Of a stretch of 64,000 nt of DNA, positions 3,443-46,869 are shown in pieces. Location of the stretch: contig OZ024743.1 in assembly GCA_964016885.1 (NCBI GenBank), positions 152,582,001 through 152,646,000 on the forward strand, given 5' to 3'. A program made the position numbers and the translations under genes. The stretch is from Eledone cirrhosa (Eukaryota). Numbering within the stretch: the first letter of the stretch is position 1; each line of letters opens with the position of its first letter. The notes beneath the pieces are model-generated. The model saw only the letters and a list, made by a program, of their open reading frames with translations, was not told where the DNA came from and searched no databases.

Positions 3443-3443
<1 letters not shown>

Positions 3444-8559: not shown

Positions 8560-8560
<1 letters not shown>
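7411..8560 (+). mobile_element. Dong/R4 family A, 5'-truncated copy
   Basis: Matches 9780-10916. Ends aatgcaactg followed by (TAA)n. Confidence 0.92.
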
Positions 8561-10973: not shown

Positions 10974-10975
<2 letters not shown>

Positions 10976-11957
10976 TTTCATTTATTAGCCACAAGGGCCG
11001 ACATGTAGGGGACAATACAAAGACAGGGACAGTGGGGGTTTACAATAAGGTCGAGTAAAAGTGCACAATGGCAAGACTAATTTAACAATGAAAATATAAA
11101 ATATAAAATAAACTATGCAAAATATAACAAAATAAATTCCCCGATAGGGGGTGGACGACCCTGGGGTGATTCGGGTACCCCACCAATCCTGAACCACCCT
11201 GCGCTTCTAGGGCACCCAGGAGAGCACCCCTCTCCTCAAGTTAGCCAGCCTATAGGCGCATGGTCAGAGTAGGGCCATTCACACGAGCCATTCTCGCCAC
11301 ATTCACCCACCTTTTAGCAAATGTACTGGGGGGCAGCACTTCTCTCTCCACCCTCACCCGCCTTTCCAGGTGAAACTTGAAGAAGTTGATGAGGGATTGG
11401 CCGAAGAGAAAAGTGTCTGTCTTTAGTCCTTTCAACCTGGTCCACCATATAATCTCTTTCGCAACTGCCACCAGACAGAGGAAAATGTCCTGCTCTTCCT
11501 GACCTAAGGAAGGTGGCGGCTCGATCTTTACTATGGACTCGGCCGATAACTGGATTCGTTCCACACGCGACAGTAGCTGTTCGACATAACTCCACAAGTC
11601 AGTAATGCACGGACATAGGACAAGTGCGTGCAGAACGGTTTCGTCGTTCTGTGCGCATCTTGGGCAGGTCCGTCTGACAGCACTTCCGTGCCTGTAGAGT
11701 TTATCCCGAACCGGCAGTGCCCCCCGGTAGCACTGCCAAGCGAGGGATTTCTGGAAATTGTCCATCGTCCCCGGCTCAAAAGTCCTCCGGTACAGACTGG
11801 TCAGTTCGACTTCGTCGAGGTCCAAAGCTTCTCCGAGTGCGTCATCGCACTTGCCCACCACTAATCCTCTATAGAACTCGAGAGTGGAAGTTCCACTGAT
11901 CGCATTGCCCGCTTGGTAGAGGGCAGTGAGTGCCTGGCAACATTCCAGGTGCCAGTC
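10974..11957 (-). mobile_element. Tx1 family b, 5'-truncated 3' fragment flanked by (ATT)n
   Basis: ORF2 C-terminus (WQCYRGALPVRDKL, CPRC) clearly diverged from family a, with a distinct 3' UTR ending ggcccttgtggctaataaatgaaatc(att)n. Confidence 0.9.
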
Positions 11958-12217
11958 TAATAATAATAATAATAATGCTTTCTTTATTAACCACAAGGGT
12001 TTACACAAAGTAAGACATTAAGGACAACACAGGGCGGTACAAATGGGCATTTCTGCGTGTAAAAAAACAGAGGATGTAACAAAAAAAAGAAACAATGAAA
12101 AATTCCCCAATAAGGGGGAGACTTCCGAGGGACATTCGTCGAGAAAGCCCATTAAAAAAAGTCACGGTGATACTGACCACCAGGGCAAGTGCCTTCTCCC
12201 AGTTTTCCACTTTCAAT

Positions 12218-14901
12218 TTACAGGCACATAATCAGAGTAGGTCCATTCACACGGGCCATTCTTGCTTCTCTCACCCATCTTTCAACAAAATGCTGGGAAG
12301 AGAGCACTTCCCTCTCTACCCTGATTTTCCTTTTCAAATGAAATTTTGAAAAATTAATCAGGGCATCACCGAAGAGGTAAGTGCTCGTCTTCAGCCCTTT
12401 CAAACACGTCCACCATACTATCTCTTTCGCCATGGCCACCAGACAGATAAAAACTGCCAGCAATTCCCGGCTAAAGGAGGAGGGCGGGTAAATCCTCATG
12501 ATGGACTCAGCTGATAGCCGGATCCGTCCTACACGCGACAGCAGGTGTTCGACATAAACCCACAAGTCAGCAATTCTCGGACACTGGATGAGTGCGTGCG
12601 GGACCGTTTCGTCGCCCTGCGCGCATCTCGGACATGCCCGGCTGACGGCACCTCCATGCCTGTAGAGTTTATCCCGCACTTTCAAAGCTCCTCGGTAGCA
12701 CTGCCAGGCCGGGGATTTCTGGAAGTTGTCCATAGGCCTCGGCCCGAAAGTTCTTTCGAAGAGATTGGCTAGTTGATTTTCTTTGACGCCTAGAGTTTCC
12801 CCAAGTACGTCGTCACTTTTCCCCTCCACTAATCCTCTATAGAACGCCAAGGTGGAGTTTCCACCGTTCACATTGCCCGGCGGGTCGAGGGCTGTGAGCG
12901 CCTGAAGACATTCCAGTCTCCAAGCGCTCCCTCTAGGTCTTCGCTTGACTCAGGACTGCAGTTCCGTCAAGGAGACGAGCTGGGGAAAAACGCGTCTAGC
13001 AAACGGCGACCACACCTGATTACCGTCGAGGAAGAGGTGGAGATGTCGTAGCCTGAGCGCGTGTCTGCGGATCATCAGCCACGGCATGCCCAGCACTCCA
13101 CGTAGCGGGTGTTGACAGCAGATGGACTGCCTGACAATCGGAGTGCGTCCCTTCCACAAAAAGCGAAACAACAAACGCTCCAACGCAGTCAGGCGAGGCT
13201 TAGGACAAGGCACGACGGTCAGGAGGTAGTAGATGTCGGATGAAATGTACGCATTCGCCACCTCCGCTCGACCTTTCAGGGATAGCTTCCTCTCGGCCCA
13301 TTTCTGGGTGAGAGAAGCCACACTGCTCGTCACCTCGTCCCAGTTTTTGTCCGTCTGGAGGTCCGGACCGAAACAGACCCCTAGCAATTTAACCGGTCCA
13401 TCCGTCCATCGCCCGACGACGCTGTTGGACGGCATGGACCTACCTCTCCAGGTGCCGAGCTACAGGCCCACCGACTTTTCCTGGTTGATCATTGCTCCTA
13501 TCACCGCTTCGTATTCTCTTAGTGTAGTGCCGATCGCCTCGATACCGATCGCCTCACTACGGTAACATCGTCCGCATATGCTGAGACGGATCTTCCGCAT
13601 CCTAGTTCGCGCGGGACTCCCCTCAACGTCTCCAGTTTGTGCAGTAATGGCTCGAGAGTCAATACGTACAAGAGGGACAAGAGGGGACATCCTTGGCAGA
13701 CCGAGCGCATGATGTTGAACGGTTCCGGAAGGTGACCGTTCACTCTCACCATAGAGCAAATGTCGCTTTGCATGGCAGCGATCCAGCCTCTGAAGACGAG
13801 CCCAAAGCCAGCCGCCCTCAGGACTGCCGCTAGATAACGATGTTCAACCCTATCGAAAGCTTTCGACTGAGCTAAATTGATCAAGGACCCACCCGTGACA
13901 GGTTCCCTAGCTACCTTCTCCACGATGTATCGCATGAGGTGGAGGTTGTCGTGGATGGATCTGTCGGGAATGGCGCATGTCTGCGCCTCTCCAACCACAC
14001 CACCAACGACAAGCGCCAACCTCTTTGCTAGCACCTTGGCCAAAATTTTGAACCCTGTGTTTAGCAGAGTTATGGGCCTGGAATTCTCTATGTTACCCCT
14101 TTGTTCGGATCCTTTCTCAGCAGCGCCACTGCTCCTCGGCTCACAGAGCTGGGAATTCTCCCGTTCTGTTTGGAGTTGAAGTAAACGTCCGCCAAGAGGC
14201 CTCCGTACAAGTCTGGCATCTGTACGTAAAGTTCGCAGGGCAGACTATCCAAACCAGGCGATTTACCCCTTGTGCAGCCAGTCATTGCCTCCCGTACTTC
14301 AGCAGCTGTTATCGGCTTTTCGAAACACTCCGCCTCAGTGGCCGAGAGCCGCGGCAGTCCGTCGAGGTAGACACTAAAGTCCATCCCTTGGTCCGGCCCG
14401 CAACTGCCACTGAACAGTTGAGCGAAGTGTTGCTGAAAAGCTTCACACATTTTCCCGGGATTGAGTAGCCTGCTCCGATCGTGGTCCACCAAAGACCGAA
14501 TCATGACTTTGTTGTCACGACCCGCCTCCGCCACTCGGGCCCATTGAACCGCTTTCGTCCCCTCGTGTCTGAGAACCCCGTCAGGGCATAGACGGCCACT
14601 AGCCTGAAAGCTTGCCCTTCTCCGCTGGTCACGTCCAGCACCACCAACTTACCTTCTGGGTCTAGGAAGATGGCGCGTATGGCGAGAAGCACAGCAACTC
14701 CTCCCCCGATCCAGGATGGCTGGGAGATACATACACGTAGCCGCCGAAGATCAGTGCGAAGGCTCATGCTTCGGAGATTCTGGTCTCGCTGATGGCCACT
14801 ACATCTATGTTTAGTGACCTGAGGTCGTTGAGCAGGTGGCCCTGTTTCCATGACGACCCCAGGCCACGCACATTTATGGTGCCTATTCTGAGTGAGCTCA
14901 T
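12218..14901 (-). pseudogene. Tx1 ORF2 (partial APE plus RT), disrupted
   Basis: Fragments SPGLD, SKAFDRVEH, AYADD, CPRC across several frames. Confidence 0.9.
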
Positions 14902-14936
14902 GTTGAAAAGGAGTGGAAAAAGATGGGAAATACCAC

Positions 14937-16896
14937 TTACCTCACTTCTCGTAGAGTAAGGATGGTTTCTCCATCCTTCTCACTGCTTGTGGTCTCTTCC
15001 GGAAAGATGTCCTTATAAATTCTCCTGGAGAGTGTTTGTCGGAAGTCTCCGATGTCCTTCGGGAATTTTTGTTTTAGTGTCGTGTATGTTTTCTGTGTGA
15101 TGCGAGTGATTTGTATGTGTGGAGGTGGTGTGAATTTTTGGGGTGTTGTGTAGTCTTTTTCCGTGATGCTTGTGTTGTGTTAGATGTAGTATAATAATTG
15201 GTTGTTGTTCAAATTTAATGCTGTGTAGTGTGTATCGCTTTGGTTGTTTTGTTTTGTTTGCGTTCGTTATGGGTTTGTTTCTGTTTCGCTTTTTGGTGAT
15301 TTTTGTGGTGTTGGTGATGGTGGTTGTGGGGTTAACGATGATGATGGTGCTGGTATTTGTGGTGATGGGGCTGGTGATGCTGGTGTGGGTGGTGGCATAG
15401 CTGTCTTAACATTTTTGTTTGTTTGCTTATTTGTTTCCCCCTGCATTTTATTTTTGGAGGGCGAAGGAAGAGGATTTTTTCTTTTTGTTTTTTTTTTTCT
15501 TTTTCATTTTTCCTGATACCATTTCCCACTCCCCCTCATCGTCAGAATCTGTCTCCAGTGGGGATAGTTCGGGGAGTGGATAATCCTCCACAGGCGTTGG
15601 TTTTGGTTGTGGCGTGTTGGATGGTGGATGCGCTGGTGCTAATTCTGGGGCGGTGGGTGGTAGTGGTGTTGGTTTTGCTACTGTTGCTGGGGTTGTTGCT
15701 GCTACAGTTACTTCTGTTGTTGCTGCTACAGTTGTTGCTGCCATTTCTGCTGCTGGTGGTGTTGATGGTTAAGTCACTGGGGTGGGTAGGAGAGGTGGCC
15801 TCAACTTTTTAGCCTGAGGGCAAAACCCTTTAGGTGGCTTCCTTCGCCACAAACGATACACCTAGGCCTTCTACCCTCAACGATTACGGTGAGGTGGCCG
15901 CCGTCATTGAGGTCTATCACCTCTGGAATTTCCTCAATGTTATTTTTGGTCCGCTTGGATCAGGAGCTCCATACCAGATCCGGACCAGTTCTCCTGCTAT
16001 TCTTTTGTCCCCTAATTATTTTTGTGTTGGCCTCAATGCCAGCGAGGACGGCAGCCATTAGCCAGGGAATTTCGATGGCCGGCGGAACGTGGGTCACCCT
16101 GATCTTCACGAGTCTCTGACCACAATAGCTTGGAACGAGTGTGAACTCGTCGCTTCTTAATGGGGCCATGGAGTGCTCTCTGCCTTCCTGTGGGATTCCA
16201 AAGAACACGTCCACGGTTCCATATTTCTGCCCACGTCTGATGTGGTTTTTTTTTGCCCACACATGTCCCAAAGCTTTTTTGTATCTGGGACTCAGATGTC
16301 CGTTCCACTCTGCGTGATTTTGTGTTTATCGTCCGATATGACACGGTGCATAGGCGCCGATGCCCCATTTTATTAGATGGTGGGGTGAGGCTGACCCTGT
16401 ACCCATCTTTTTTACCATTCTCTTGGCTTCATTTAATTCATTCTGGCTTACCTCAATTGTTTCGCTTTTCTTGGCTGCTTTGGCAAACTACACATTTTGT
16501 TTTACGCTGGTGTCGATGTTGTTGTTGTTATTCTCATTGTTGTTTTTGTTACTGTGGTTGTTATTGTTATTTTTAGTTTCAGTTGTGGTGGCGGTGTCAG
16601 TGGTGTTCGGCGTGGAAGAGTTGATTCTGGGTGAATTCATTTCGATATCACGAGATAACAATTTATTTTTTTTTGTTTCTGTTGTTGCTGTGGTGGTGCT
16701 GGTGGTGGCGGCGGCTTTAACACCTGCAGTTATTGGTAATGGCGGGAAATGAATGTCTGCATGTGACAAATTTAAATTATTGCCACTGCTTATATTGTTA
16801 GTGTTGGCAACCGTAGTAATGTTTACAATGGTGGTGTTGGTGTGAGGTGTTAATTTGTGAGGAAGGCTGTCAGCTTTGTGTGGCTGAGCCGTCCAT
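14937..16896 (-). pseudogene. Tx1 ORF1 (gag-like, CCHC knuckle, Thr/Pro-rich and Lys-rich tracts), frameshifted
   Basis: Homologous to 26563-28475. Contains CIVCGEGSHLKG.CP and DDEGEWEMVSGKMKKKKK. Confidence 0.85.
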
Positions 16897-17109
16897 GTTT
16901 TTTTTCAAAGAAAGTTTTTGTTTGATGTTTATAAAAGTTAAAATTTTGGGCTCAAGGCCCCACATTTTTTAGTGTCCTTTCAGAAAGCAATATATGTGAA
17001 CTTATAAACACTTAACAACAAACATTTTCCATAACTGGCAATTTGAAACAACTGAAAACAACAAACCTTTGCGGAGCTCACGATAATACGATTTCCTATG
17101 TAGGCCACC

Positions 17110-17160: not shown

Positions 17161-17161
<1 letters not shown>

Positions 17162-17840
17162 GTTTCTTTATTAGCCACAAAGGCTAACATGAAGAAAAAC
17201 ATACAGACGGCACAGAACGGTACGGGACGATACAAAGTGGGTTTTGGTCATGTAAAAAAGGTTATAACAAGAAGATAGAAATATAAAACAAATTCAAACA
17301 ACAAAAATTCCCCAATAGGGGGTAAACTTCCGAGGGTCACTCGTGGCAAAAACTACAGAAAAGACCACGGCCACCCTGACCACCAGGGTAAACACCCTCT
17401 CTCAGTTTTTCACTCCCCAGTCTACAGGCGCATACTCAGCGCGGGCCCGTTCACTCGGACCAGACTCGCCACTTTCACCCACCTTTCAACAAACTTATTA
17501 GAAGACTGCACTTGTCTCTCCACCCTGATTTTCCTCTTCAAGTGAAATTTGAAAAAGTTAATCAGAGATTGGCCGAAGAGGAAAGTGTACGTCTTCAATC
17601 CTTTCAACCTTGTCCACCATACAATCTCTTTCGCCATGGCCACCAGGCAGATGAAAACTGCCTGCCCTTTGTCCTCCTTAAAGGAGGACGGCGGGGCTAT
17701 CTGCACAATGCACTCAGTCGATAACCGGATCCGTCCTACACGTGACAGAAAATGTTCGACATAGCTCCACAAGTCAGCAATGCTCTGACACTGAACGAGT
17801 GCGTACACAGTGGTTTCGTCGCTCTGTGCGCATCTCGGAC
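17161..17840 (-). mobile_element. Tx1 family c, 3' fragment
   Basis: ORF2 C-terminus (KEIVWWTRLKGLK, ERWV..RVNGP). The 3' end is ttagcctttgtggctaataaagaaacc(att)n. Confidence 0.9.
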
Positions 17841-17842
17841 AA

Positions 17843-17934
17843 TTGTTTCTACTTTTGACACAAAGCCAGCAATTATCCTAGTGCATTACTGGTACTTTAT
17901 TTTAGCGACCCTGTAAGAATATAAGGCAAAGTTA
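17843..17934 (-). mobile_element. SINE 3' half
   Basis: Reverse complement of the SINE body and tail. Confidence 0.85.
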
Positions 17935-17963
17935 TAATAATAATAATAGAAATTATTATTATT

Positions 17964-18263
17964 GGTGGATTGGCAGTATCGGTAAAGGGTCGGACACCAT
18001 GCTTTGCAGCATAGAGTTACGTTCCTTTACGGTTTGAGTTCAAATTACGCTGAGGTTAACTTTGCCTTTCATCCTTATGTGGTCGATAAAATAAAGTACC
18101 AGTAATGCACTGGAATAATTGCTGGCCTTGTGCCAAAAGTAGAAACAACTATTATTATTATTCGCCGAGGTTAACTTTACCTTTCATCCTTACGGGGTCG
18201 TTAAAATAAAGTACCAGTAATACACTGGGATAATTGCTGGCCTTGTGCCAAAAGTAGAAACAA
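17964..18263 (+). mobile_element. Two tandem SINEs (near-full 17964-18148; 5'-truncated 18163-18263) separated by (ATT)n
   Basis: A box tggcagtatcggta, B box gagttcaaat, tail ggccttgtgccaaaagtagaaacaa. Confidence 0.9.
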
Positions 18264-18999
18264 TTATTATTATCAATGTTACTCTAACACACTTGCTTGC
18301 TCCCTACGTTTTCAATGCTTGTCCCTGTCTTAACCATAAATTCAACATGGTCTGCCCAGGGAATTTGAAATGGCTGACGTTAAGATTGCAGAGATAAGAT
18401 GGTTGATGTGACATGAGATCTTGTGAGGTCAAGAGGAGGTGTAAATATGGCAGGTATCATTTGGTTATTCAAGGGAAGTAACTCCTGCATTTGTATGTTT
18501 TTAAGTTTGTACGTATGACAAAATTATAAATATACAAAATTATAAACATATACATATCTGTTATGAATTATACTATGTTAAAGCTACAGTTAATTAATCC
18601 TAGTCAGTCAAGCTTACACTATATGCAAATGCGCATCACCAACTTATCCTTCATATGTAAAATAATATTTAATCTATAGCTTATTTTTGAGTGAAGATCA
18701 CTGATAATGGATAAAAATCTAGAAACAAATGTCTGGCATTCGCACATGAGTACTGTGACGGATGACATGATCACAGCTTAAAACATTCATAGCAAGACTC
18801 ATATATGTTTATTATACATAAACATATAGTATATGCCTTTATATACACCTCTATTAGTATATTTAGATGTCTATTTATACACATGTTACACACACACACT
18901 CACACACACACAACCCCTCCCCTCTATATATGTATGTATGTATGTTCCAGCAAAGGGCAGATGAACTCAGCAGAGTCATTGGTCATCCAAACAGTACTT

Positions 19000-19470
19000 T
19001 TTTTTTTACCTGGGAGTGAAAGGTCCCTAGTTGTGGTCAAAACACCTTTCTAAGAGAGGGAAATTGAAAGAAAAACCTGCAGCTTCGGAAGCATCCGATG
19101 ATGTTGACCAGTTTTCTCCTTTTTGGATAGTGTTTTCAATGCTCAGAGAGTGGGATTGGTCGAGTGCAAGGCTTTTCCCCATATATAAAACCTTCAAAGC
19201 ACAGGCATTGTTTGTTCAGGATATGTTACAGCTTCATGTGGCTGGCCGTAGCCTAAAAGTGCACCATTTTCTGTAATCTGACAAGCAATTGCAATACTCT
19301 TAACAGAGTTGGCAGCGATCATGTATGTAAGGTCCAGTAACTCCTGGGGTGGGTGGGGGGTGGGGGTGGGGGGAGTGTCGTAGGGGCACCACATTAACCT
19401 ATGGCATTTCTAGGGTATTTTTTAAAAACCTGGTGGAGCCCAATCCTCTCCAGGTCTGAATACAGAATTT
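19000..19470 (-). pseudogene. Heavily decayed non-LTR RT fragment (possibly Ingi/Vingi/I-like)
   Basis: Piecewise minus-strand translation resembles RT domains 1-3 (IALL..K..RLRP..GF..GKS..SIEN..QK..KTG). Many frameshifts. Confidence 0.3.
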
Positions 19471-19499
19471 CTTCCAGAGAATGATAGAGAGTGATATGT

Positions 19500-19541
<42 letters not shown>

Positions 19542-19570
19542 GTTTAACGTCCATTTTCCACGCTAGTATG
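19500..19570 (-). mobile_element. RTE-type 3' tail remnant with (GAT)n
   Basis: Minus strand reads ctagcgtggaaaatggacgttaaacgatgatgatg, as in the RTE ends at 32440 and 55530. Confidence 0.75.
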
Positions 19571-19597
19571 TGTGTATATATATCTATATATTTGTGA

Positions 19598-19715
19598 AAG
19601 TGCTTGGCTGATAGTTAGAGAACTGGATTCACAATCGTGAGCTTGTGAGTTAGATTCCCAGACCGGGTGATGTGTTATGTCCTTGAGCAAGACACTTTAT
19701 TTCACATTGCTCCTC
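19598..19715 (+). mobile_element. Second tRNA-derived SINE family with a CORE-like domain, partial
   Basis: A/B-box-like head plus tgtccttgagcaagacactttatttcac. Same family as 56493 and 62517. Confidence 0.7.
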
Positions 19716-20641
19716 CTACCTGGATTTGTGACTAATAGAAACATTGTTTCTTCAGTTCGACTTGACAAAAGTCGATTGACTGTCAATATATATACATATT
19801 AGTGAGCTTTTATGTGATAGTGTGATTGTGCATGAAAAGATTACTACTATCTATATTTTTGTTGTTAGGTAGAGAGAAGGTTATTAACATGTAAAATGTT
19901 AACATCATCTATGCTATAGCTAGAAGACACAAATACAGAAATGGAGACATGTTAACTCCAATAACAAATGGAGTTTCTTAACTCAAGTCATTGTAAGAGA
20001 AATAACTATAGCTTGATTAAATTATATATTTGACTGCATTGGTCCAGAAACTAATACAGAATAGACACTTTAGAATCACATGTCAGTTTAGGAATATGGG
20101 ACTGCATCATTTCATAAGAAATCTTAATTCAGCTTTAAAATGTGACGGTCTTGTCACTTTCAATGAGATCTCTTCTTTCTTTTTCTTTTAATGACATACT
20201 TCTTTCTTATTTTTTTCTGTTTCCTTCTTTTTCTCATTCATTCTTTCTCTTTTTCCCTCATTTTTCTCTGCCTCACATATAGTCTACGAAGCGTGTATTG
20301 CCAGTAATTTAATTCTTTAACAAGATGTAGTGTTACAATAATCTCTTGCTGTGCAATGTGTCAAAGTTTGTAAGTTAATGATTACTCTTCAGTAATTGTA
20401 AAAATAGATAAAAACCTCCAAAAATTTAATCTTAAATCTCATTTTGATGAAACAAATACAGGGTGAGTTATTTTAAATTGGCTGTAGTTTCTTTCTGAAG
20501 CTTAACCCTATATAGTGTGTTAGTTTTGGTTTAGAATTGCTGAATTCTGAGAATTTTAAACAATGTCACGTGCTTGCCTGTTTGAAAATTATTATTATTA
20601 TTATTTTTATTATTATATTATATTGTATTGTATTATTATTA

Positions 20642-21420
20642 TTGCCATTTCATTTATCTTGCTTTATGTTCATCCGAGTTATCACCAAGTCACAACCAGT
20701 GACCCAAGTGACAACAAGGTCTGCTATGTTCAAGAAAATTGCACACACACATGTATCTTTAGGTGTTTAGACTTGTGATATACTTATATTGACATAATCT
20801 TGCTTAGTATATGGGTAGATGCCATTAGTACTATCTTTTGTATTTCTTCTGTACGTGGGTTTCCTGGGATTTAGGATAAGTGATCATTAAGCCCCTTAGA
20901 TATCATTCCTAGAGCGCCTACAACCACTGGTATTGTTTTAGTTCTCAACTTCGCCATTTTTCCAATCTCTATATTTGCCAATTTTTCAAACGTTTTATAG
21001 ATACATTCTTGTCTATAGGAACAGTCATGTCAATTAGCAGGCATACCCTCTTCTTAAAGTCCTTCAGTATTATATCAGATTTATTTGCATCTATTTTTTG
21101 GTCTGTTTGAATGATAAAATGCCACAAAATTGAAATATGACCTTTTCAAGTATGGGATGTTCCCACCAATTCTTTTGGTAGGGTAGGTCAAAATGCTTAC
21201 ACATCATCCAATGTATGTATTGTTATGCTCTGTCGTGCCTGTTAAGGTATGGATTTGGCACTATAAGACTGCACATTGAAATTATATGATCAACAGTCTC
21301 TGGTAGTTGTTTTAGACATGGCACAATGGTTTGCATCCATTTTTTAATATGTTGGCTTGATAATTTTTTGTTGGCAGACACTGTTCTTGTGCTGATATAA
21401 TCAGACCTTCAATCTCCGAA
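20642..21420 (-). mobile_element. Dong/R4 family A, older 5'-truncated copy
   Basis: Reverse complement of the Dong-A 3' region and UTR, preceded on + by degenerate (ATT)n. Confidence 0.88.
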
Positions 21421-21429
21421 TTTTTACTC

Positions 21430-21508
21430 AATTATATTGTAAACCCCCACTGTTCATGTCTTTGTATTGTGCCCTACATGTCGGCCCTTGTGACCAATAA
21501 ATGAAATC
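21430..21508 (+). mobile_element. Tx1 family b, extreme 3' tail only
   Basis: gtctttgtattgtgccctacatgtcggcccttgtgaccaataaatgaaatc matches the reverse complement of 10974-11050. Confidence 0.85.
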
Positions 21509-21516
21509 ATTATTAT

Positions 21517-21694
21517 TGGATTGGCAGTATCAGTAGAGGGTCGGACGCCTTGCTTTCCAGCATAGTTAAGTCCCTTTACGATCTGAGTTCAAATCCCGCT
21601 GAGGTTGACTTTGCCTTTCATCCTTGCGGGGTCGATGAAATAAAGTACCAGTAATGCACTGGGTAATTGCTGGCCTTGTGCCTAAAATAGAAAC
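21517..21694 (+). mobile_element. tRNA-derived SINE with (ATT)n tail
   Basis: A box, B box, body and tail all present, followed by (ATT)n at 21695-21737. Confidence 0.92.
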
Positions 21695-21695
21695 A

Positions 21696-21737
<42 letters not shown>

Positions 21738-21749
21738 GCCATTGTTATT

Positions 21750-24700
21750 CCTTGAATCTCAGTCATTGATGTTGGTTAACTGGAAAGTCCGTTGGATTGA
21801 ATATCAAGCCACTACCTGCAGCCTCAGATATTCAGGACGTATCGGAGGGTTCTTGCTGTTCCAAGTAAGCATGCCTTTTGAAGCGTTCCAAAAAGCGTGA
21901 AGGGGCCGATTTTCTTTAACCATCCCTGGAAACCTTTGGAGATAGTCCCCAGTGCGCCTATGACAATCGGGATCACTTTGACTTCATGGCAGTTCCAAAT
22001 CCTTTTCACCTCCCACTTTAGGTCCTGGTATCGGTTAATTTTCTCCCTCTCCTTCTCTTGCACTCTCGTGTCGAACGGGCAGGCCACATCCACAATCAGG
22101 CACGATCTTTTTTCTTTGTCCACAACCACCAGGTCAGGTCTATTGTGTTCCAGTTTTTTGTCCGTCTGTATCCTAAAATCCCACAGCACCTTCACCTGAC
22201 TGTTCTCCATCACCGCCTCTGGCCTATGCTCATACCATTTCTCAGAATGTGGTAGATTGTTTACTTTGCACAGGTGCCAGTGGATCACCCTGCCCATCAC
22301 ATCGTGTCTCCAGCCCTTATAGTGGGTCTGGGCTAGGTGTTTACACTCGGACACAATGTGAGCCACAGTCTCCTCTCTCTCTCCACAGATCCTGCACAGT
22401 GGGCTAGCCTCCTCCTTGTAGATATGGTGCTTCAACCACTTCGTTTTGAGGGCCTGCTCCTGCGCAGCCATTAGCATTCCTTCTGTAGCCTTTTTGAGGT
22501 CTCCTCTTCTCAACCAGTTCCATGTCTGTGGATCTCTAAATTCAGTTTTCTCAAAGAAGGTACTATGAAGGGATTTTCCCTTAAGGCTGCTCTTCCTCCT
22601 TGATGTTATTTCCTCCTTGGGCATCCCCTGGCCTACTGTCCCCTCCTTCAGTACAGTTCTGAGCATTGGCTCCTTACTATAGGTCACGTATTTGTATAGG
22701 TTGTTTTTCTCCATCTGAACACAGTCCTCTATGCTGATAAGACCTCTTCCACCCTCAGATCTCCTTAGGTAGAGTCTATCGACATCACTCCTCTTGTGGA
22801 ACATGTTGTAGATAGTCAATAGCTTCCTAGTCTTCCTATCCATTTCTTTTTGTTCAGCAACATTCCATCTCAGAATTCCCGCACTGTACCTAATAATAGA
22901 CACAGCTCGGGAATTTACTGCGCTTATGGCATTTCTGCTGTTCAGATGTGACTTCAATACGCTCCTTACTCTCCGAATGTATTCAGTTCTTAACAATTCC
23001 TTCATTTTTTTGTTCTTTATGCCATCAGCCTCCAGAACGCCCAAATACTTGTATCCTTCCTCAGAGTCAATTTCCTTTATCATCCCACCTGTTGGTATCT
23101 GGATCCCGTTACTTCTGCTCAACCTACCCCTCTTCATCACAATGACTCCACATTTACCAATACCAAACTGCATACATATATCACTGCTGAAAATACGGAC
23201 AGTGTCAACAAGCACATCCAACTCCTTCTCACTTTTCCCGAAGAGCTTAAGATCGTCCATGAAGAGGAGGTGATTGATGGTAAGCTCTCCCCTTCCCAAC
23301 TTGTATCCTGCTCTCACTTTTCGCAGCATAATGGTCAAGGGCATCAGGGTAAGGACAAACAACAGAGGGGACAGGCTATCTCCCTGGAAGATACCTCTCT
23401 TGATCTTCACGCTTCCCAAGGATACTCCAGTTGATGTCAACTCTGTCTCCCAGGACCCCATACTCCTGCCCAGCAACTGTCTGATGTTATCTGCCACCCT
23501 GAAGATCTCCAGGCTTTTGGTGATCCAGGAATGAGGCACCATGTCAAATGCCTTTCTGTAGTCTATCCATCCCATGGCAAGATCAGTGTGTCTCCTCCTG
23601 CAATTCCCCATTACCATCTTATCAATAAGCAACTGGTCCTTTGTACCACGTGACTTCTTTCGGCATCCTTTCTGTTCGTCCGGTAACAAGTTGTTTGTGT
23701 GGAGGTGATGGTAGATTGCCTCAGACACAATGCTCGTCAACAGTTTCCACATTACGGGCAGACATGTGATAGGTCTATAGTTGGTAACATCATTACCCTT
23801 GATTCGGTCTTTCATTATCAGAACTGTGGTACCTTTTGTCAACCACTCTGGCACCTCACCCGACACCAAGCAGTCATTGAACATGGCCGTCAGCTTCGGG
23901 TGGAGGGATGTTAAATGTTTAATCCAATACCCCTGCACACCATCTGGGCCTGGTGATTTCCAGTTGGTTAGTTTTTTGGCTTGCCCCTTAAGAGTTTCAA
24001 CTGTGATACTCAAATCAGTCTGTTGTTGCGCCTGCTCACCGATCTCCCTCTGTACTGTCTCAATCTACCCTGCCTGGGCATTGTGTCTAACATCCTGCTC
24101 CCATATTCCTCTCCAGAATGTTTTAGCTTGTTCCGCCCCAGGGATCAAGTCGTTGCCTCTTTCTTTCCCCTCAAGCTGTCCAAACAGCATCTTCTGGTTG
24201 TTGTCGAACATGCGGTTCTGTTTATACTGACTGACTCTGTTCTCGTATCGCCTGATTTTGGCACTCTTTGCTACAATGCGTTGCTTCAATTCCTCTATGA
24301 TAATATTTAGCTTTTTACTCCTAGTTTTGTATTTTATTTCCAGTCTATTTTTAGTGCCTATGTTTTTTAGTGTCCCATTCAGTAGTGACTCAAGCTTTCC
24401 TATGTCATTTCTCATTTCCCCGATTTGCCCACTCAGTCGCTTCTTCCACCACGGCTCTGCTCTTTCTTGTCTGTTGTTTCCTCTCGCTTTTATACCAAGT
24501 AGTTTCCTCACCGTATTTGCTGTTGCTTTGAGGATATTGTTGCACTGGTGAAGGCTCCTCGCCTCAAGGTATGGGATGACTTTGTTTACCTTAGCTGTTG
24601 TTTCTTTTAACTTTTTCCTGTCTACAAATCTTAGGTTCATAGGTCTCCCACTATCATTGTTCAATTCATCTACCACTAAATTTAGGATGTCAACCGAATC

Positions 24701-26296
24701 TTGTCCTAGCCCGTCAGCACTCATCTCCTCAGTGGCCGCATCTCTGTTCCAGGTATTATTTATCTCAGTATTCAGATCATTGTCTGCTTCGGGTGGTTCC
24801 TCCGTTCTCAGGACCTCCTCACCTTCATTTCCCACCGGCTCGCTTGTCTGGCATACTACACCCGCCATCTCCAAGCCATTCTCTCTGCTCAGTTCCTCCA
24901 GTTCCAGCTCGCTTATCCACCCATTAGTTCTTATTACCCGAGCCTGCCCGGCCAATTTTTGTTCATCTAATTTAAATAAACCAATCTCGTTCCAGATGTT
25001 ATGCATCCGTCTCCTGTAGCCCCTCTCCTTGGGGTTACTTTTCAGGTAGCATTGCATAACAGTTCTATTCAATTCTTTCGTCCAGTTGGTTCTGGCCCCT
25101 TTCCTTCTTCTTCTTCCTCCAACATCAGCAGTATTTGGTTGACAGTCAGGTTCCTGCTGCTGAGCCAGGGGGCACCTGTTGGGTGAGAGTCTGTCACATG
25201 ACGTTCTAGTCTCCATTTCACCGTTATTCGAACTGTTTATGTTCGATATTTAAACACTCTTATCGAGGATTGGCGAATGTATGTTTACATAGCCATCTGT
25301 GGATCCGCCATCCCACTTGGCCCTTGTGTGGCATTATCACCACGCTGTATACGAACACACATAAACAAACAAACACACGGGCAGAAAGGGCCCCCAAAAT
25401 GAATAAGCATAAGTTTCATTGTAATGTAGTATTCGAATGTCTGACTTAGTTTTTGTTTTTTAAGTTTTACTTTTTCCCCCCTCTTCTCTGTCCGTCCGCC
25501 TGCTTCTCTCTTCATTCTTATTTTCTTTACGTTTTTGGGGTTTCTTTTTTTGTTTTTGTTTTTCTCTGTTTGTTTTTCTCGTTTTTGCTGTTGTTGCTGT
25601 GCTGCTTTGGTTTTGTTGTTTGTTTTTTCTTTTTTCTTTTGAGTCTATCTATATATTTTGATGCCTTCCTCTTTGTTAGTAGTAGGAATTCTATAATGTG
25701 GAAGTAGCAGCCAGCAGGGAGAAGTGGGAGACTGGCGGCGGTAGCGATACTGAGACAGTGGTGGTGGTGATGTCGATACCGAGGCAGTGGTGGCGGTGAT
25801 GCGACCGTATTACTGTAGTGATGGTGCTGTAGCGGTGGCAGCAGTGAAGGAGTCAAGGGGTGGTGGCGGCGGTGATGGGATAGTGGTGGTAATGATGGCC
25901 GTAGTGAGCGGTGGCGGTGAAGGTGAAAATGTCGTTATCTGGCTGTTGTGTTTAGTGTACACAGATGATGGGGTGGGTGGTGTATCTAGTTTCTGGTGTT
26001 GGTGAGTTTAGCTGTCCTATATAGTGTAGCCAGAGGAGAGGGGGGGGGGTTCTTCTTCTTCCATTTATAGCCATTTTTTTTTGGGATATACAGTGTACAA
26101 TACAAAGTTGAATATTTGAATATTTGAGCCTTATAACAATATATTTTGGGTCCGAATGTTTTGGGGCTCAAGCCGGGTGCTTTACGTAGCATTTGTACTA
26201 AGAGTTGTTATTTCACAAATGATTTAAATATGTTAAAAATTCAAAACTTACGGGAGCGATTTCATGACCTCCGTCACCTCGTGCGTCTTCTTCCCT

Positions 26297-26298
<2 letters not shown>
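21750..26298 (-). mobile_element. Dong/R4 family B, apparently full length (~4.55 kb)
   Basis: Bounded by (AAT)n on both sides on the minus strand. A single long ORF, an ~1.08-kb leader and a short 3' UTR. The 5' boundary is inferred from the microsatellite. Confidence 0.88.
21824..25216 (-). pseudogene. Dong/R4-B polyprotein (~1130 codons; RT, CCHC, RLE) with one in-frame premature TAG
   Basis: The 383-aa and 729-aa ORFs are in the same frame, split by TAG at 24065-24067 where the paralog has TGG (48103-48105). Motifs KSPGPDG, FMDD, CRIC..H..C, RHD, RPDLVVVD..IVDVACP. Confidence 0.93.

Positions 26299-26352
<54 letters not shown>
26299..26352. repeat. (ATT)18 microsatellite separating head-to-head Dong-B and Tx1-a
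   Basis: Direct reading. Confidence 0.97.
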
Positions 26353-26562
26353 GGCGACCTACGTAGTAAATCGTATCATCGTGAGCTCCGCAAAGGTTTG
26401 TTATTTTCAGTTATTTAAAATTGCCATTTATGGAAAATTTTTATTGTTAACTGTATACAAGTGCACATACATTGTTATCTGAAAAGGACACCCAAAAGGA
26501 TTGGGGCCTTGTGCCCAAAATTTAAACTTTTATGATTATCAAAAAATTTCTTTGAAAAAACC

Positions 26563-28475
26563 ATGGCTGATTCACCTCTGCACCAAGCAACTGAGAGCCT
26601 TCCTCACAAACTAACACCTCACACGGACACCACCATTGTAAATATTACTACGTTTGCCAACACTAAAAATATAAGCAGTAGCAATATTTTTAATTTGTCT
26701 CAGGCAGACATTCATTTCCCGCCATTACCAATGACTGCAGGTGTTAAAGTCGCCACCCCCACCAGCACCACAGCGACAACAGAAACAATAGAAAAAAATA
26801 AATTAACTCGTGATATCGAGATGAATTCAACCAAAATGAACTCTTCCACACCGAACACCACTGACGCCACCACCACCACAACTGAAACTAAAATTAATAA
26901 CAAAAATAACGATAACAACAACAGCAACAATGAAATTAAGAAAACCATTCTGAGTTTTGCCAGAGTAGCAAAACAGTGCGAAGCATTTCAGGTAATTCAG
27001 GAGGAATTAGAAGAAGCCAAACAATTGGTAAAGAAAGATGGGTACAGGGTCAGCCTCACCGCCCCACCTAATAAAATGGAGCATCGGCGCCTATGCACCG
27101 TGTCTTATCGAACAATTAATATAAAATCGCGCCGAGTGGAACGGGCATCCGAGTCCCAAATCCCAAAAGCTTTGGGTCATGTGTGGGCAAAAAAACCCCA
27201 CATCAGACGTGGCCAGAAGTATGGAACCGTGGACGTGTTCTTTGAAACACCACAGGAGGCTAGAGAACACTCCATGGCCCCATTAAGAAGTGACGACTTC
27301 ACACTCGTCCCCAGCTATTGTGGCCAGAGACTCGTAAAGATCAGGGTCACCCACGTTCCACCGGCCATCGAAATTCCCTGGCTAATAGCTGCCGTCCTCG
27401 CCGGCATCGAAGCCAACACCAAGATAATCGAAATAGCGAAAGAAAAGCAAGAGAACTGGTCCGGATCTGGGATGAAGCTCCTGATCCAAGCGGACCAAAA
27501 AAGCATTGAGGAGATCCCAGAGGTAATAGACCTCACTGACGGCAGCCACCTCACCGTAATTGTCGAGGGCAGAAGGCCTAGGTGTGTCGTTTGTGGTGAA
27601 GGCTAAGGTTGAGACCACCTCTCCTACCCACCCCAGTGACTCAACCATCAACACCACCAGCAGCAGAGATGGCAGCAACAACTGTAGCAGCAACAACAGA
27701 TGCAACTGTAACAGCAACAACCCCAGCAACAGTAGCAAAACCAACACCACCACCACCCAATGCGCCAGAACAAGCACCAGCGCCTACACCATCCACCACG
27801 CCACAACCAAAACTAACGCCTGTGGAGGATTTTCCACTCCCCGGCCTATCACAACTGGAGACAGATTGTGACGATGAGGGGGAGTGGGAAATGGTATCAG
27901 GAAAAATGAAAAAGAAAAAAAAAAACAAAAAGAAAAAATCCTCTTCCTTCGCCCTCCAAAAATAAAATGCAGGGGGAAACAAATAAGCAAACAAACAAAA
28001 ATGTTAAGACAGCTATGCCACCACCCACACCAGCATCACCAGCCCCATCACCACAAATACCAACACCATCATCATCATTAACCCCACAACCACCATCACC
28101 AACACCACAAAAATCACCAAAAAGCGAAACAGAAACAAACCCATAACGAACGCAAACAAAACAAAACAACCAAAGCGATACACACTACACAGCATTAAAT
28201 TTGAACAACAACCAATTATTATACTACATCCAACACAACACCAGCATCACAGAAAAGACTACACAACAACCAAAAAGTTCACACCACCTCCACACATACA
28301 AATCACTCGCATCACACAGAAAACGTACATGACACTAAAACAAAAATTCCCCAAAGACATCGGAGACTTCCGACAAGCACTCTCCAGGAGGATTTATAAG
28401 GACATCCTTCCTGAGGAGGCCACAAGCAGTGAAAAGGATGGAGAAACCGTCCTTCCTCTACGAGAAGTAAGGTAA
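26563..28475 (+). pseudogene. Tx1 ORF1, frameshifted
   Basis: ATG at 26563 opens 347 aa ending RPRCVVCGEG (knuckle partly deleted), then Thr/Pro-rich and Lys-rich segments ending ..ETVLPLREVR*. Confidence 0.87.
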
Positions 28476-28509
28476 GTGGTCTTTCCCATCTTTTCCACTC
28501 CATTTCCAC

Positions 28510-31203
28510 ATGACCTCACTCAGAATAGGCAGCATAAATGCGCGTGGCTTGGGGTCGTCATGAAAGCAGAGCCACCTGCTCAACGACCTCAGGTCACTAA
28601 ACATAGATGTAGTGGCCATCAGAGAGACCAGAATCTCCGAAGCACGGGCCTACGCACCGATCTTCAGCGGCTACGATGTGTACGCATCTCCCAGCCGTCC
28701 GGGATAGGGGGGCGGATTTGCTGTGCTTTTTCGGAGAGGTTTGGATCTCGCCATACGGGCCATCTTCCTGGACCCAGAAGGTTGGTAGTGCTGGACGTGA
28801 CTAGCGGAGACGGGCAAGCTTTCAGGCTAGTGGCCGTCTATGCCCCGACAGGAGCAGGGCGCCCTGATTTCTTCCGGCGTCTGGAGACCTTTCTTCGAAC
28901 GTCCCGCTCTTTAGTGTTATTGGACGACTGGAACGGGATCTTAGATGCACGCTGGGACTGTGTGGGATTAGCGGATAGGGGAGGAGGGTGCAAGAGTATC
29001 ACCAACCTTCTCAGGCGTTTTGAACTGTCTGACAGGTACCGATTGGATTTCCCGAATGTGCCAATGTGGACTTGGACAAATCGCATAGGGTCATCCAGAT
29101 CATATCTAAATAGAGTATTTTGTAGGGAAATAGATAGGTCTAGCATAGGCTGTCCACAATTCAAGATAGTCAGCTTCACGGACCACAAATTCGTGATCTG
29201 TGTGCTTGACTTAGATAGGCTTCATAGACGAGGACCCGGCTACTGGAAGCTAAACGCGTCCTTACCAGCAGGCAAGGCCTACAGAGACCGGATTAGCGAA
29301 CTAGTTAAGCGGGCGTTGACGGGTGGTATGCTCTGAAAAGAGAAATTAGAATAGAGTCCATTAGGTTTAGTAAGGCTTTAGCAATAGAGAAAAATAGAGC
29401 AGAGGGAGAATTAGTTAGAAAATTAGACGAGGCGTTTAGCAAAGGCATCGCGACCGACGTACTTGCGGCGAAACTGGACCTTAACCAATTCTTCAATGCA
29501 AAGCACGAAGGCTGCGTTGTCAGAGCTAGGGTGCGTGCTCTCAGACACGGGGGGACGAAAGCCGTTCAATGGCCCGAGTGGCGGAGGCGCGTCGTGGCAA
29601 CAAAGCCACGATCCGGTCTTTGGTGGACCACGACGGGCGCATGATACTCGATCCCGGACACAGCTGATTGGGGGCAGCGGCTGGCCGGATCGAGGGAAGG
29701 ACTTTAGTGATTACCTCAATGGCCTGCCGCGGCTCTTTGCCACTGAGGCGGAGTGTTGCGAAAAGCCGATAACAGCCGCTGAAGTACGGGAGGCAATGAC
29801 TGGCTGCACAAGGGGTAAATCGCCTGATTTGGATGGTCTGCCCTATGAACTTTACGTACAGATGCCAGACTTGATCGGGGGCCTCTTGGCAGACGTCTAC
29901 TGAAATGCAACAGAACGGGAGAATTCCCAGCTCTGTGAGCCGAGGAGCTGTGGCACTGCTGAGAAAGGATCCGAACAAGAGGGATAACATAGGTAATTTC
30001 AGGCCCATAACTCTGCTAAACACAGAGTTCAATATTTTGGCCAAGGTGCTAGCAAAGAGGTAGGCACCATTCCCGACAGATCCATCCACGACAACCTCCA
30101 CCTCATGCGATACATGATAGAGAGGGTAGCTAGGGAACCTTGCACGGGTGGGTCCTTGATCAATTTAGATCAATCGAAAGCTTTCGATAGGGTCGACCAT
30201 CGTTACCTAGCGGCAGTCATGAGGGCGGCTGGCTTCGGGCCCCTCTTCAGAGGCTGGATCGCTGCTATGCACAGCGACATCTGCTCTGTGGTGAGAGTGA
30301 ACGGTCACCTTTCGGAACCGTTCAACATCACTGGGCATGCCGTGGCTGATGATGCGCAGACACGCGCTCAGGCTACGACATCTCCACCTCTTCATCGACG
30401 GTGATCAGGTGTGGTCGCCGTTTGCTAGACACGTCTTTCCCCAGCTCGTCTCCTTGACGGAGCTGCAGTCCTGGGTCAAGCGAAAACCAAGAGGGAGCAC
30501 TTGGAGACTGGAATGTCTTCAGGCGCTCACAGCCCTCGACCAATCGGGCAATGTGATCGGTGGAAACTCCACCTTGGCGTTCTATAGAGGATTAGTGGAG
30601 GGGAAGAGCGACGATGTACTTGGAGAAACTCTAGGCGTCGACGAAAATCAACTAGCCAATCTCTTCGGAAGAACTTTTGGGCCGGGGCCTATGGACAACT
30701 TCCAGAAATCCCTGGCCTGGCAGTGCTACAGAGGAGCTTTGCCAGTTCGGGATAAACTCTACAGGCATGGAGGTGCCGTCAGCCGGGCATGTCCGAGATG
30801 CGAGCAGGGCGACGAAACCATCCTGCACGCACTCGTCCAGTGTCCGAGCATTGCTGAGTTGTGGGTTTATGTCGAACACCTGTCACGTGTATCACGGATC
30901 CAGCTATCAGCTGAGTCCATCATGAGGATTGCCCCGCCCTCTTCCTTTAGCCGGGAAGGGCAGGCAGTTTTTATCTGTCTGGTGGCCATGGTGAAAGAGA
31001 TAGTATGGTGGACACGTTTGAAAGGGCTGAAGACGAGCACTTACCTCTTCGGTGATGCCCTGATTAACTTTTTCAAATTTCATTTGAAAAGGAAAATCAG
31101 GGTAGAGAGGGAAGTGCTCTCTTCCCAGCATTTTGTTGAAAGATGGGTGAGAGAAGCAAGTATGGCCCGAGTGAATGGGCCTACTCTGAGTATGTGTCTG
31201 TAA
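28510..31203 (+). pseudogene. Tx1 ORF2 (APE plus partial RT plus C-terminal domain), disrupted
   Basis: MTSLRIGSINARG, VAVYAP, TDHK, PGYWKLN, DQSKAFDRVDH, CPRC motifs. Confidence 0.92.
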
Positions 31204-31446
31204 ATTAAAGGTGGAAAACTGGGAGAGGGCACTTGCGCTGGTGGTCAGGGCCACTGTGGTCTCTTAATGGGCTTTCTCCACAAATGTCCCTCGGAAGTCT
31301 CCCCCCTATTGGGGAATTTTTCTTTGTTATTTTATTTCATCCTCTGTTTTTTTTACATGCAGAAATGCCCATTTGTACCGTCCTGTATTGTCCTGTACTG
31401 TCCTTAATGTCTACTTTATGTAAACCCTTGTGGTTAATAAAGAAAA

Positions 31447-31483
<37 letters not shown>

Positions 31484-31536
31484 CTAGAAATCATTATTAT
31501 TGTTACTATTATTATTATTATTATTTCCATTATTAC

Positions 31537-32645
31537 TTTACCAAAGACAGCTCTGTGCGCCTGGAGCATGAGCAGTGTAGCTTTTGCTGATGTTGTTTCT
31601 ATTGCATTGATACTACTTTTCGGAATATGTGTGCAATAACTAGTAGAGCTATATTTTGTATGCTGTATATATTTCTAAGTCCTGGGGTTTTGACTATGTA
31701 GGGCATTGTGTGCAGAGGATCTGTGCAGACTGGAGAGGAACGAAGCTTGCATGCTCCGTTGGATGTGTAATAGTAATATACGTGAACGGCAAAGCATAAA
31801 TGAACTAAGTGAGAAATATGGAATAAGAGGGATCAGATGCTGTTTACTCGAGAGAAGACTACGTTGGTATGGTCACGCACGTGATGTGCATGAAAGACGA
31901 CAGCTGTATAAAAAAATGCAGGGCGATCAAAATAGATGGAAGATACGGAGTAGGCAGACCCAGAAAAACCTGGGACAATTTGATAAATTCTGACCTTACA
32001 CACTGACACCTCTCCAAGACAATGTCACTGGAACGAGATCTTTGGTGCTACGCAGTAATACAGAAGACCCACCATGCCTAAGTACAAAGTGAAACCTACA
32101 GTCACTAGGCACATCCTAACCAAAAATACACCCCCACCCCACTACACCTACCCCCCACCCCCATATACACCACCCCTTTCTCTGTAAAGTTATGTTGGTG
32201 CCACAACATCCAGTCCTAAATAAATGAGGTCGTGTAGGTGTCACAACAAAAAAGACACACTCTCCACGCTGTAATGTGGCCGTGTAGGTAACACGGTAAA
32301 AACCTCCCAGTCCACACTGTAAACGTGGTTGGTGTTAGGAAGGGCATCCAGCCGTAGAAAACCCTCCAGACAGTCCTATACGAGCAAGACAACCAATCCT
32401 GCCTCATGTGGGACAATTCCCGTCTAAACCCATGCTAGCTTGGAAGATAGACGTTAAATGATGATGATGATGATGATGATTTGTCTGTGTGTTTTTTTAT
32501 AATTCCTAGGGCACCTATTATTATAGGCATATGGTTTTCATTTTCCACATTCGAAATATTTCCATCTCTATATTTGGAAAGTTTCTTTATTTCCTTGGAA
32601 TATATATATTGTCGTCTGTGGAGATAGATACATCTATTAGAAGGT
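31537..32645 (-). mobile_element. Dong/R4 family C 3' fragment, split by an RTE insertion
   Basis: 31537-31700 and 32481-32645 join seamlessly (acacagacaa|tacatagtcaaaacccc) and match 58960-59290. Confidence 0.8.
31701..32480 (+). mobile_element. RTE-clade LINE, 5'-truncated 3' fragment with (GAT)n tail
   Basis: MLRWMC..RRLRWYGH and GRPRK.W motifs. Close to 44760-45547. Confidence 0.9.
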
Positions 32646-32667
32646 ATTTATTATTATTAAAATGTCA

Positions 32668-32984
32668 ATCTGAGTTCAAATCCCGTCGAGGTTAACTTTG
32701 CCTTTCACGCAGTCAATAAAATAAAGTACCAGTCATGCACTGGAGTCGATTTAATCGACTCTCCCCTCCTCCAAAATTGCTGGCCTTGTGCCTAAATAAG
32801 AAACCATTATTGGCAGTATCGGTAGAGGGTCGGATGCCATGCTTTCCATCATAGTTACGTCCCTTTACGATCTGAGTTCAAATCCCGCCGAGGTTGACTT
32901 TGCCTTTCATCATTTCGGGGTCGATAAAATAAAGTACCAGTAATGCACTGGGTAATTGCTGGCCTTGTGCCTAAAGTAGAAACA
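32668..32984 (+). mobile_element. Two tandem SINEs (long-subfamily 3' part 32668-32806; short subfamily 32811-32984)
   Basis: B boxes, shared body, tails ggccttgtgcctaaataagaaacc and ggccttgtgcctaaagtagaaac, each followed by att repeats. Confidence 0.9.
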
Positions 32985-36593: not shown

Positions 36594-36779
36594 GGGCGGT
36601 GAATTGGCAGTATCGGTAGAGGGTTGGACGCCATGCTTTCTAGCATAGTTGCGTCCCTTTACAGTCTGAGTTCAAATCCCGCTGAGGTTAACTTTGCCTT
36701 TCATCCTAATGGGGTCGATAAAATAAAGTACCAGCAATGTACTGGGTAATTGCTGGCCTTGTGCCTAAAGTAGAAACAA
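36594..36779 (+). mobile_element. Full-length tRNA-derived SINE
   Basis: gggcggtgaattggcagtatcggtag..gagttcaaatcc..ggccttgtgcctaaagtagaaac(aatt), embedded in (ATT)n. Confidence 0.92.

Positions 36780-46825: not shown

Positions 46826-46869
<44 letters not shown>

Follow-up and report, generated by a model that had tools for sequence, protein, structure and literature searches.

The question raised by this locus is whether a Tx1-like long interspersed nuclear element (LINE) mobilises a very abundant short interspersed nuclear element (SINE) through a 3' tail that the two have in common. The window, that is, the whole 64-kb stretch analysed (Eledone cirrhosa, assembly GCA_964016885.1, contig OZ024743.1, positions 152,582,001 to 152,646,000), was found to be a nest of elements around ATT/AAT arrays, which contained six endonuclease-reverse transcriptase LINE copies with this tail, approximately 12 SINE copies and two R4/Dong-like LINE families (the labels R4/Dong, RTE and CR1-like follow motifs in the translations, not a classifier). 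On the sequence evidence, a Tx1-like LINE/SINE partnership is probable, with a likelihood of roughly 0.8. Such a partnership had been proposed in an earlier sequence-only reading of the window, and it is upheld here by the specific similarity of the tails, the same geometry of target duplication and the same sense of insertion, with no such end seen in any other LINE. The hairpin sequences quoted in that reading were all located, at the hairpin positions listed below, as was a quoted SINE end at 32781-32812 (+). The members of the pair in the window are as follows.

26353-31447 (+): Tx1-a LINE, 5' end present, internal deletion of ~620 nt, open reading frames (ORFs) broken; within an (ATT)n array (26299-26352 and 31448-31480)
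31423-31447 (+): 3' tail of this Tx1-a copy, stem AACC/GGTT, loop CTTGT, then AATAAA and GAAAAC; hairpin 31423-31435
11977-17109 (-): Tx1-a-type LINE, 5' end present, internally deleted; hairpin 11989-12001
3443-7282 (-): Tx1-a LINE, 5'-truncated, with endonuclease and reverse transcriptase frames; hairpin 3455-3467
10974-11957 (-): Tx1-b LINE, 3' part, with zf-RVT; hairpin GGCC/GGCT at 10987-10999
17161-17841 (-): Tx1-c LINE, 3' part, with a 6-bp hairpin at 17171-17187
21422-21508 (+): Tx1-b 3' end, very short, with a single stem mismatch (GACC)
17964-18147 (+): SINE, short subfamily, near full length, with A and B boxes; tail hairpin 18123-18135
18163-18262 (+): SINE, tandem copy, 5'-truncated
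17844-17934 (-): SINE, 3' part, abutting the Tx1-c 5' end
21515-21695 (+): SINE, directly behind the short Tx1-b tail
32668-32805 (+): SINE, long subfamily, 5'-truncated; tail GGC-CTTGT-GCC-TAAATAA-GAAACC
32809-32984 (+): SINE, short subfamily, GCCT variant
36598-36778 (+): SINE, short subfamily
50704-50884 (-): SINE, short subfamily
53730-53913 (+): SINE, short subfamily
1609-1768 (-): SINE with an internal deletion

Across the 3.0-Gb host assembly, from which all genome-wide counts given here derive, the LINE ends follow the consensus RCC-YYUGU-GGY-N-AAUAAA-GAAANC with the target repeat directly behind it; 16-17 nt separate the end of the loop from the ATT run. In exact pattern searches, LINE-type ends numbered 11,493 with the 16-nt spacing and 3,159 with the 17-nt spacing, while 145,378 SINE-type ends were followed by ATTATT; the reversed-pattern controls for both returned 0 matches. 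None of 135 Tx1 ends had a run of at least 8 A within 40 nt, and the ends were thus found to lack poly(A) within this distance.

The similarity between the two tails was then quantified with a profile built from 12 LINE ends alone, which was run over both strands of 1.0 Mb of the genome taken from round-number positions (1,999,972 28-mers). At the median SINE score, this LINE-only profile gave 107 matches, consisting of 73 SINE ends, 30 Tx1 ends and four others, and the competing ends of two Dong-like LINEs and one RTE element scored between -11 and -18 when best shifted. If the AAUAAA is left aside, the SINE and the LINE disagree in just two of the 10 columns that were common to at least 11 of the 12 LINE examples. 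These two columns are partners in one base pair (C-G in the LINE, G-C in the SINE), an outcome for which a rough estimate of chance is ~1-2%. The SINE lacks the AAUAAA and its most variable columns fall there, a loss that an RNA polymerase III (Pol III) transcript could sustain. The sequence-only reading had also considered that another LINE might match the SINE tail better; none was found among the LINEs of the 1.0-Mb sample or by SINE-stem pattern searches. In particular, the SINE stem combined with non-SINE upstream bases gave 215 matches, and of the 30 examined, 19 had the SINE body, 11 had neither element and none had Tx1 within 200 nt upstream; the four matches to the SINE stem combined with AATAAA were all SINEs. 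The other LINE ends in the 1.0-Mb sample, among those listed, were (GAT)n, (ATG)n, (TA)n or (ACAT)n, with one RTE-like and one CR1-like end not located. As judged from these sequences, the SINE tail is specifically Tx1-like.

We found that the hairpin in this tail is smaller than had been proposed. Stem pairs 1 to 4 were formed in 142, 135, 131 and 82 of 144 LINE ends, and in 126, 122, 128 and 76 of 134 SINE ends, respectively. RNAalifold, applied to 17 family examples, returned a consensus stem of 3 bp only. In these hand-picked examples, pair 1 was invariantly C-G, pair 2 was C-G in the LINEs and G-C in the SINE, pair 3 was G-C or A-U (A-U in Tx1-a), and pair 4 failed in 8 of 17. In this alignment, the support for the stem is provided by two independent compensatory events, at pairs 2 and 3. 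The compensated stem-loop of the sequence-only reading is therefore reduced to a conserved stem of 3 bp, not 4 bp, with two compensatory changes, since the fourth pair often fails. In context, the hairpin had a predicted probability of 0.7-1.0 in nine of 11 LINE examples and 0.4 in the other two, and in the LINEs it usually sits on a longer predicted helix, in which a U-rich tract is paired with AAUAAAGAAA; the SINE does not have this helix. Contigs of three sequencing runs, all of which contained SINE and LINE sequence, yielded no called stem variants.

The insertion sites of the two elements were also compared. A target duplication was present in 35 of 57 full-length SINEs (1.95 in shuffled pairs), with a median length of 16 nt, and 27 of these 35 duplications opened with ATTAT, directly adjoining the tail. 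Among 73 Tx1 5' boundaries, 31 had a duplication; those with unique sequence include lengths of 12, 16, 16, 17 and 20 nt and share the register of the SINE duplications, while many of the other lengths are uncertain because the duplication is pure repeat. The duplications of both elements are ~10-22 nt long and begin right after GAAANN. ATTAT followed 96 of 134 SINE ends, which confirmed the earlier claim that the SINE and Tx1 lie in the same sense relative to ATT, and the sixth base was T in 77 of the 96 sites compared with 31% in the background. The target unit common to the SINE and the LINE is ATTAT(T).

The lengths of the repeat at these sites were not the same. The ATT run behind the SINE had a median of 6 nt and reached at least 15 nt in 5 of 134 ends, compared with 4.3% of random ATTAT sites; in the background, 275 of 1,975 ATTATT sites started an ATT run of at least 15 nt. 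Tx1 ends reached at least 15 nt of ATT in 22 of 30 Tx1-a copies, in 7 of 8 unselected ATT-type ends and in 23 of 40 pattern-selected ends, and the 5' junctions of all 11 full-length Tx1-a copies (20 copies fetched) lay in (ATT)5-30. The sequence-only reading had suggested that the SINE inherits targeting to the (ATT)n microsatellite, and this claim did not hold: the SINE occupies short ATTAT(T) sites, with no preference for long arrays. Direct junctions of the SINE with (TATC)n numbered 0 genome-wide, compared with 145,378 with ATTATT. Use of (TATC)n by the SINE was also considered through 94 ATTATCTATC junctions and was rejected, as these amount to 0.065% of the ATTATT count, compared with 0.3% (6/1,975) in the background.

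The LINE was characterised from a natural copy with an uninterrupted ORF2 of 1147 amino acids, in which the domains are ordered endonuclease, reverse transcriptase and zinc finger (PF03372, PF00078 and PF13966); the full-length element is ~5.9 kb. In phmmer searches, this ORF2 scored 375-395 bits against U2 small nuclear RNA (snRNA)-associated, Keno-like ORF2s, 293 bits against a protein annotated as 'Transposon TX1' and 176 bits against human L1 ORF2p, the last of which is its best relative among solved structures. The closest named relative of the reverse transcriptase was a protein of Argonauta hians with 73% identity, and a tree of 33 rows grouped this protein in a single clade with the families that target ATT and TATC (100/99). 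These LINEs likely belong to the Tx1 clade, a membership that is not proven because the tree held no curated Tx1 or L1 references. Upstream of ORF2, frames of 330-570 amino acids were present, and the single frame tested gave no Pfam match above the cut-off.

The same tail was found in families with other targets, which the sequence-only reading had not noticed. A further 2,526 ends had the Tx1-type tail with a non-A base directly behind it; (TATC)n followed the tail in most of the first 100 of these listed, and Tx1-like coding sequence lay upstream in most of the 30 loci examined. Another 269 pattern matches included a subfamily at short AATAT sites. Because the (TATC)n and AATAT sister families keep the tail, the hairpin tail belongs, as far as these sequences indicate, to the whole lineage and does not depend on the target. 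Among distant L1/Tx1 relatives sampled from metagenomes, with 25-42% identity, the motif was absent from the 20 of 80 loci examined, in 3 of which the match ended before the C-terminus; the best profile score was at most 6.8, and these relatives added no outside covariation.

Three further observations concern Tx1-like sequences. One Tx1-like subfamily occupies TATC sites as well as short AATAT sites, with duplications of 16 nt, and may be in the course of changing its target. A metagenome contig (1-5947) contained a Keno-like element, that is, a Tx1-like ORF2 with U2 snRNA sequence on both sides. A single-copy sequence (4385-4530, minus strand of its locus) had a near-perfect Tx1-type tail followed by (AAT)n and was set aside.

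The SINE, described earlier as tRNA-derived, contained an A box in 49 of 68 copies and a B box in 51 of 68, with the boxes 65-67 nt apart; the boxes agree with that description, whereas no tRNA was detected in the SINE head by ARAGORN, or by Rfam on two copies. A segment ending ~10 nt before the loop distinguishes the short subfamily from the long one. Further hairpins were predicted upstream of the tail (window 18098-18112 and 32746-32760), with the stems CCAGT/ACTGG and, in the long subfamily, GTCGAT/ATCGAC. Membership in MetaSINE, a class with a 66-bp Meta domain after the head, was considered at first and found no support in the bivalve sequences, as the SINE body was unlike bivalve Meta sequences by eye and a 7-nt word of the body was absent from the available part of the bivalve Meta supplement (PMC4824008).

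Divergence from the column majority had a median of 7.2% in the short SINE subfamily (range 1.6-25.6; n=79) and 13.7% in the long subfamily (n=24). The corresponding values were 3.1% in Tx1-a (0-9.5; n=24) and 4.6% in the TATC family (n=33), LINE sets that lean young because they were partly chosen by exact patterns. In these biased samples, the SINE and Tx1 ranges overlap at ~2-9%, but the medians differ.

Several observations weigh against the partnership or against the hairpin as its basis. The shared tail is only 28 nt and its stem only 3 bp, and the hairpins taken in isolation have folding energies of -1 to -5 kcal/mol. In context, the SINE hairpin had a predicted probability of ~0.7 in the GCCA example and ~0.1 in the GCCT and long-subfamily examples. 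A stem shuffle control, which ignored kinship, equalled the number of double-changed pairs in 127 of 500 shuffles; its 0/500 for three other measures is not a probability, because two events in sequences related to one another underlie the covariation. At 42 of the 73 Tx1 5' boundaries there was no duplication, and array length differed between SINE and LINE ends with at least 6 nt (5/81 versus 23/40, Fisher p 1e-9). SINE copies look older than the sampled Tx1-a copies, although this LINE sample is biased towards young copies, and the survey of other LINEs covered just 1.0 Mb of the 3.0-Gb assembly.

The weakness of the stem bears on how Tx1 would select the SINE. Selection might depend solely on primary sequence (CUUGUG...GAAA) or on the AUU tail, with the 3-bp stem incidental or used for LINE 3' processing near the AAUAAA. 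This alternative, which we consider unlikely, would agree with the marginal stem, which was predicted at low probability for two of the three SINE examples, with the restriction of the longer lower helix to the LINE, and with the conservation of the loop and GAAA as sequence. It is difficult to reconcile with the observation that the only SINE changes at near-invariant columns outside the AAUAAA form a reciprocal swap, with the independent covariation of pair 3, and with the pairing of slid registers in 13-59% compared with 88%. Overall, a structural role of the hairpin is plausible but marginal on the folding predictions. The 3' structural signal put forward in the sequence-only reading is thus supported by two independent compensatory changes and weakened by the 3-bp stem and by the probability of ~0.1 for the common GCCT variant.

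The differences in array length and age bear on which LINE is the partner. The true partner of the SINE might be another, unsampled LINE, such as an L1/Tx1 family of greater age or low copy number that targets short ATTATT sites, in which case the array-targeting families would share only tail ancestry with the SINE. Besides the two differences, the ~10:1 excess of SINE-type ends over ATT-type Tx1 ends and the existence of a sister subfamily already at short AATAT sites are in keeping with such a LINE. Nevertheless, we regard it as improbable, because the SINE-stem patterns revealed no Tx1 (30 of 215 examined; 4/4 AATAAA matches were SINEs), the RTE, CR1-like and R4-like ends in the sample carry different tails, and the crocodilian SINEU-1/2 are likewise weak in target preference according to the available part of PMC4494074. 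That the likeness is a chance product of AT-rich ends, with the SINE moved by the abundant R4/Dong-like or RTE elements, is scarcely credible and largely refuted: the match is short and both Dong-like families occupy the same AAT/ATT arrays, but the background is 4 in 2.0 million 28-mers, the Dong-like end is (AAT)n in the opposite sense and the RTE end is (GAT)n or (ATG)n.

Under the Tx1-like LINE/SINE partnership, the SINE is likely mobilised by the ORF2 protein of the ATT families, because it carries a matching version of the last 28 bases of the LINE. It seems reasonably likely from this match that the SINE is mobilised in trans by an ATT-family ORF2p, which would recognise the YYUGU hairpin together with the GAAA that follows. 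The endonuclease would nick the bottom strand of ATTAT(T). The RNA, having read through its own duplication, would carry AUUAU(U) behind GAAANN, and this extension would pair with the freed strand and prime reverse transcription. In human L1, poly(A) pairs with a T-run to prime reverse transcription. The LINE RNA would be an RNA polymerase II transcript that keeps the AAUAAA and may carry several AUU units, so that long arrays would be favoured, and this longer AUU read-through would explain the LINE preference for long arrays. The SINE RNA, which has lost the AAUAAA, would be a Pol III transcript with a short AUUAU and would enter short sites. RNA choice, by the hairpin, and site choice, by the endonuclease and tail pairing, would then be separate modules, since the hairpin is retained in the (TATC)n families, although the SINE, with its AUUAU tail, was not found at TATC. 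Taken further, an animal Tx1 lineage without a poly(A) end may use a two-part code, in which the fixed YYUGU hairpin would specify the RNA and the read-through tail and endonuclease would specify the site. The target would have changed between (ATT)n, (TATC)n and AATAT under a constant hairpin, and the hairpin would have been copied, with a compensated stem, by a SINE that now exceeds 145,000 copies; this fuller proposal is tentative and falls a little short of even odds.

To place the pair among known systems, we compared it with LINE/SINE partnerships in the literature. Structured tails common to L1-group LINEs and SINEs have been described in maize, sorghum and Chlamydomonas (PMC3472496, PMC3747384). 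In the available parts of these papers, the pairs of LINE1-1_ZM with ZmSINE2/3 (maize/sorghum) and of L1-1_CR with SINEX-3_CR (Chlamydomonas) resemble the present one in the 3' hairpin, the fixed loop, the variable compensated stem, the tRNA SINE and the derivation of the link from sequence. The present pair differs in being from an animal, with a target-specific Tx1-like LINE, ~28 nt of shared sequence compared with 50-80 nt, and no poly(A) at the insertion ends. A Tx1 partner is absent from the table of 58 LINE/SINE pairs in the accessible text of PMC3747384. Crocodilian Tx1-Mar and SINEU are similar in that Tx1 was inferred to mobilise SINEs, the target is common to both and some SINE families are weak in preference, but SINEU has snRNA heads, poly(A) tails and a Mariner transposon target, whereas the link here is a structured tail; the 3' half of SINEU-1 was matched by no LINE, as stated in the part of the paper that was available (PMC4494074). 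The same text describes Kibi and Koshi of the Tx1 clade, which also insert into microsatellites, namely (TC)n and (TTC)n; here, the targets are (ATT)n, (TATC)n and short AATAT, and a partner SINE is present.

A 3' stem-loop, tandem-repeat ends and the absence of poly(A) are also features of zebrafish ZfL2-1/2 (available part of PMC4176376) and eel UnaL2/UnaSINE (available part of PMC3747384). L2 ORF2p binds the 3' stem-loop, recognising the stem generally and the loop specifically (PMC4176376, same part). These stringent systems belong to the L2 clade and were shown by experiment, whereas the stem here is 3 bp and recognition is predicted. For target repeats, SART1 requires several of them (PMC7265360, from the portion available). 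L1-Tx1, Dong-R4 and numerous SINEs without classification appear in repeat surveys of octopus, which name no partners in their accessible sections (PMC13282606, PMC8967140). Full-text searches of the literature, which did not cover Repbase or Dfam, found no Tx1/SINE pair with a common structured tail.

If the two-part code is correct, the pair would be the first between a Tx1 element and a SINE to be joined by a structured tail, and it would show, as an experiment of nature, how L1-group elements choose their RNA. The plant and algal cases in the available parts of PMC3472496 and PMC3747384 leave undecided whether ancestral L1-group elements were stringent (structured 3' tail) or relaxed (poly(A)), and an animal Tx1 case would bear on this point. 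The system offers sister families with one tail but different targets, together with a natural compensated variant in the SINE, and would name the likely driver of a very abundant octopod SINE. Repeat-targeting apurinic/apyrimidinic endonuclease elements with separable RNA and site choice would also be of interest for targeted gene insertion.

R4/Dong-like LINEs also lie at the ATT/AAT arrays of the window, and two of them served as controls.

8629-10916 (+): R4/Dong-like LINE X, control outside the pair, with reverse transcriptase and C-terminal CCHC and PD..D; (AAT)n end in the opposite sense, without the hairpin
21738-25249 (-): R4/Dong-like LINE Y, control outside the pair, likewise with reverse transcriptase and C-terminal CCHC and PD..D; (AAT)n end in the opposite sense, without the hairpin
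1-1608, 7411-8560 and 47071-50383: further copies of R4/Dong-like LINEs

These elements, which the sequence-only reading had not noticed, share arrays with the Tx1 and SINE tails, which their (AAT)n ends face head-on, and two unrelated endonuclease types, R4/Dong-like and Tx1, were observed to use one repeat in opposite sense. Additionally, RTE-type LINE copies with (GAT)n ends were present at 31701-32480 (+) and 43790-45548 (+), and shorter elements at 46539-47050 and 55306-55607 had ends similar to theirs. A PHD-finger frame was found at 44334-44897 (+) amid RTE-like repeat fragments, and a self-inverted repeat of ~470 nt at 61823-62290 is possibly a miniature inverted-repeat transposable element.

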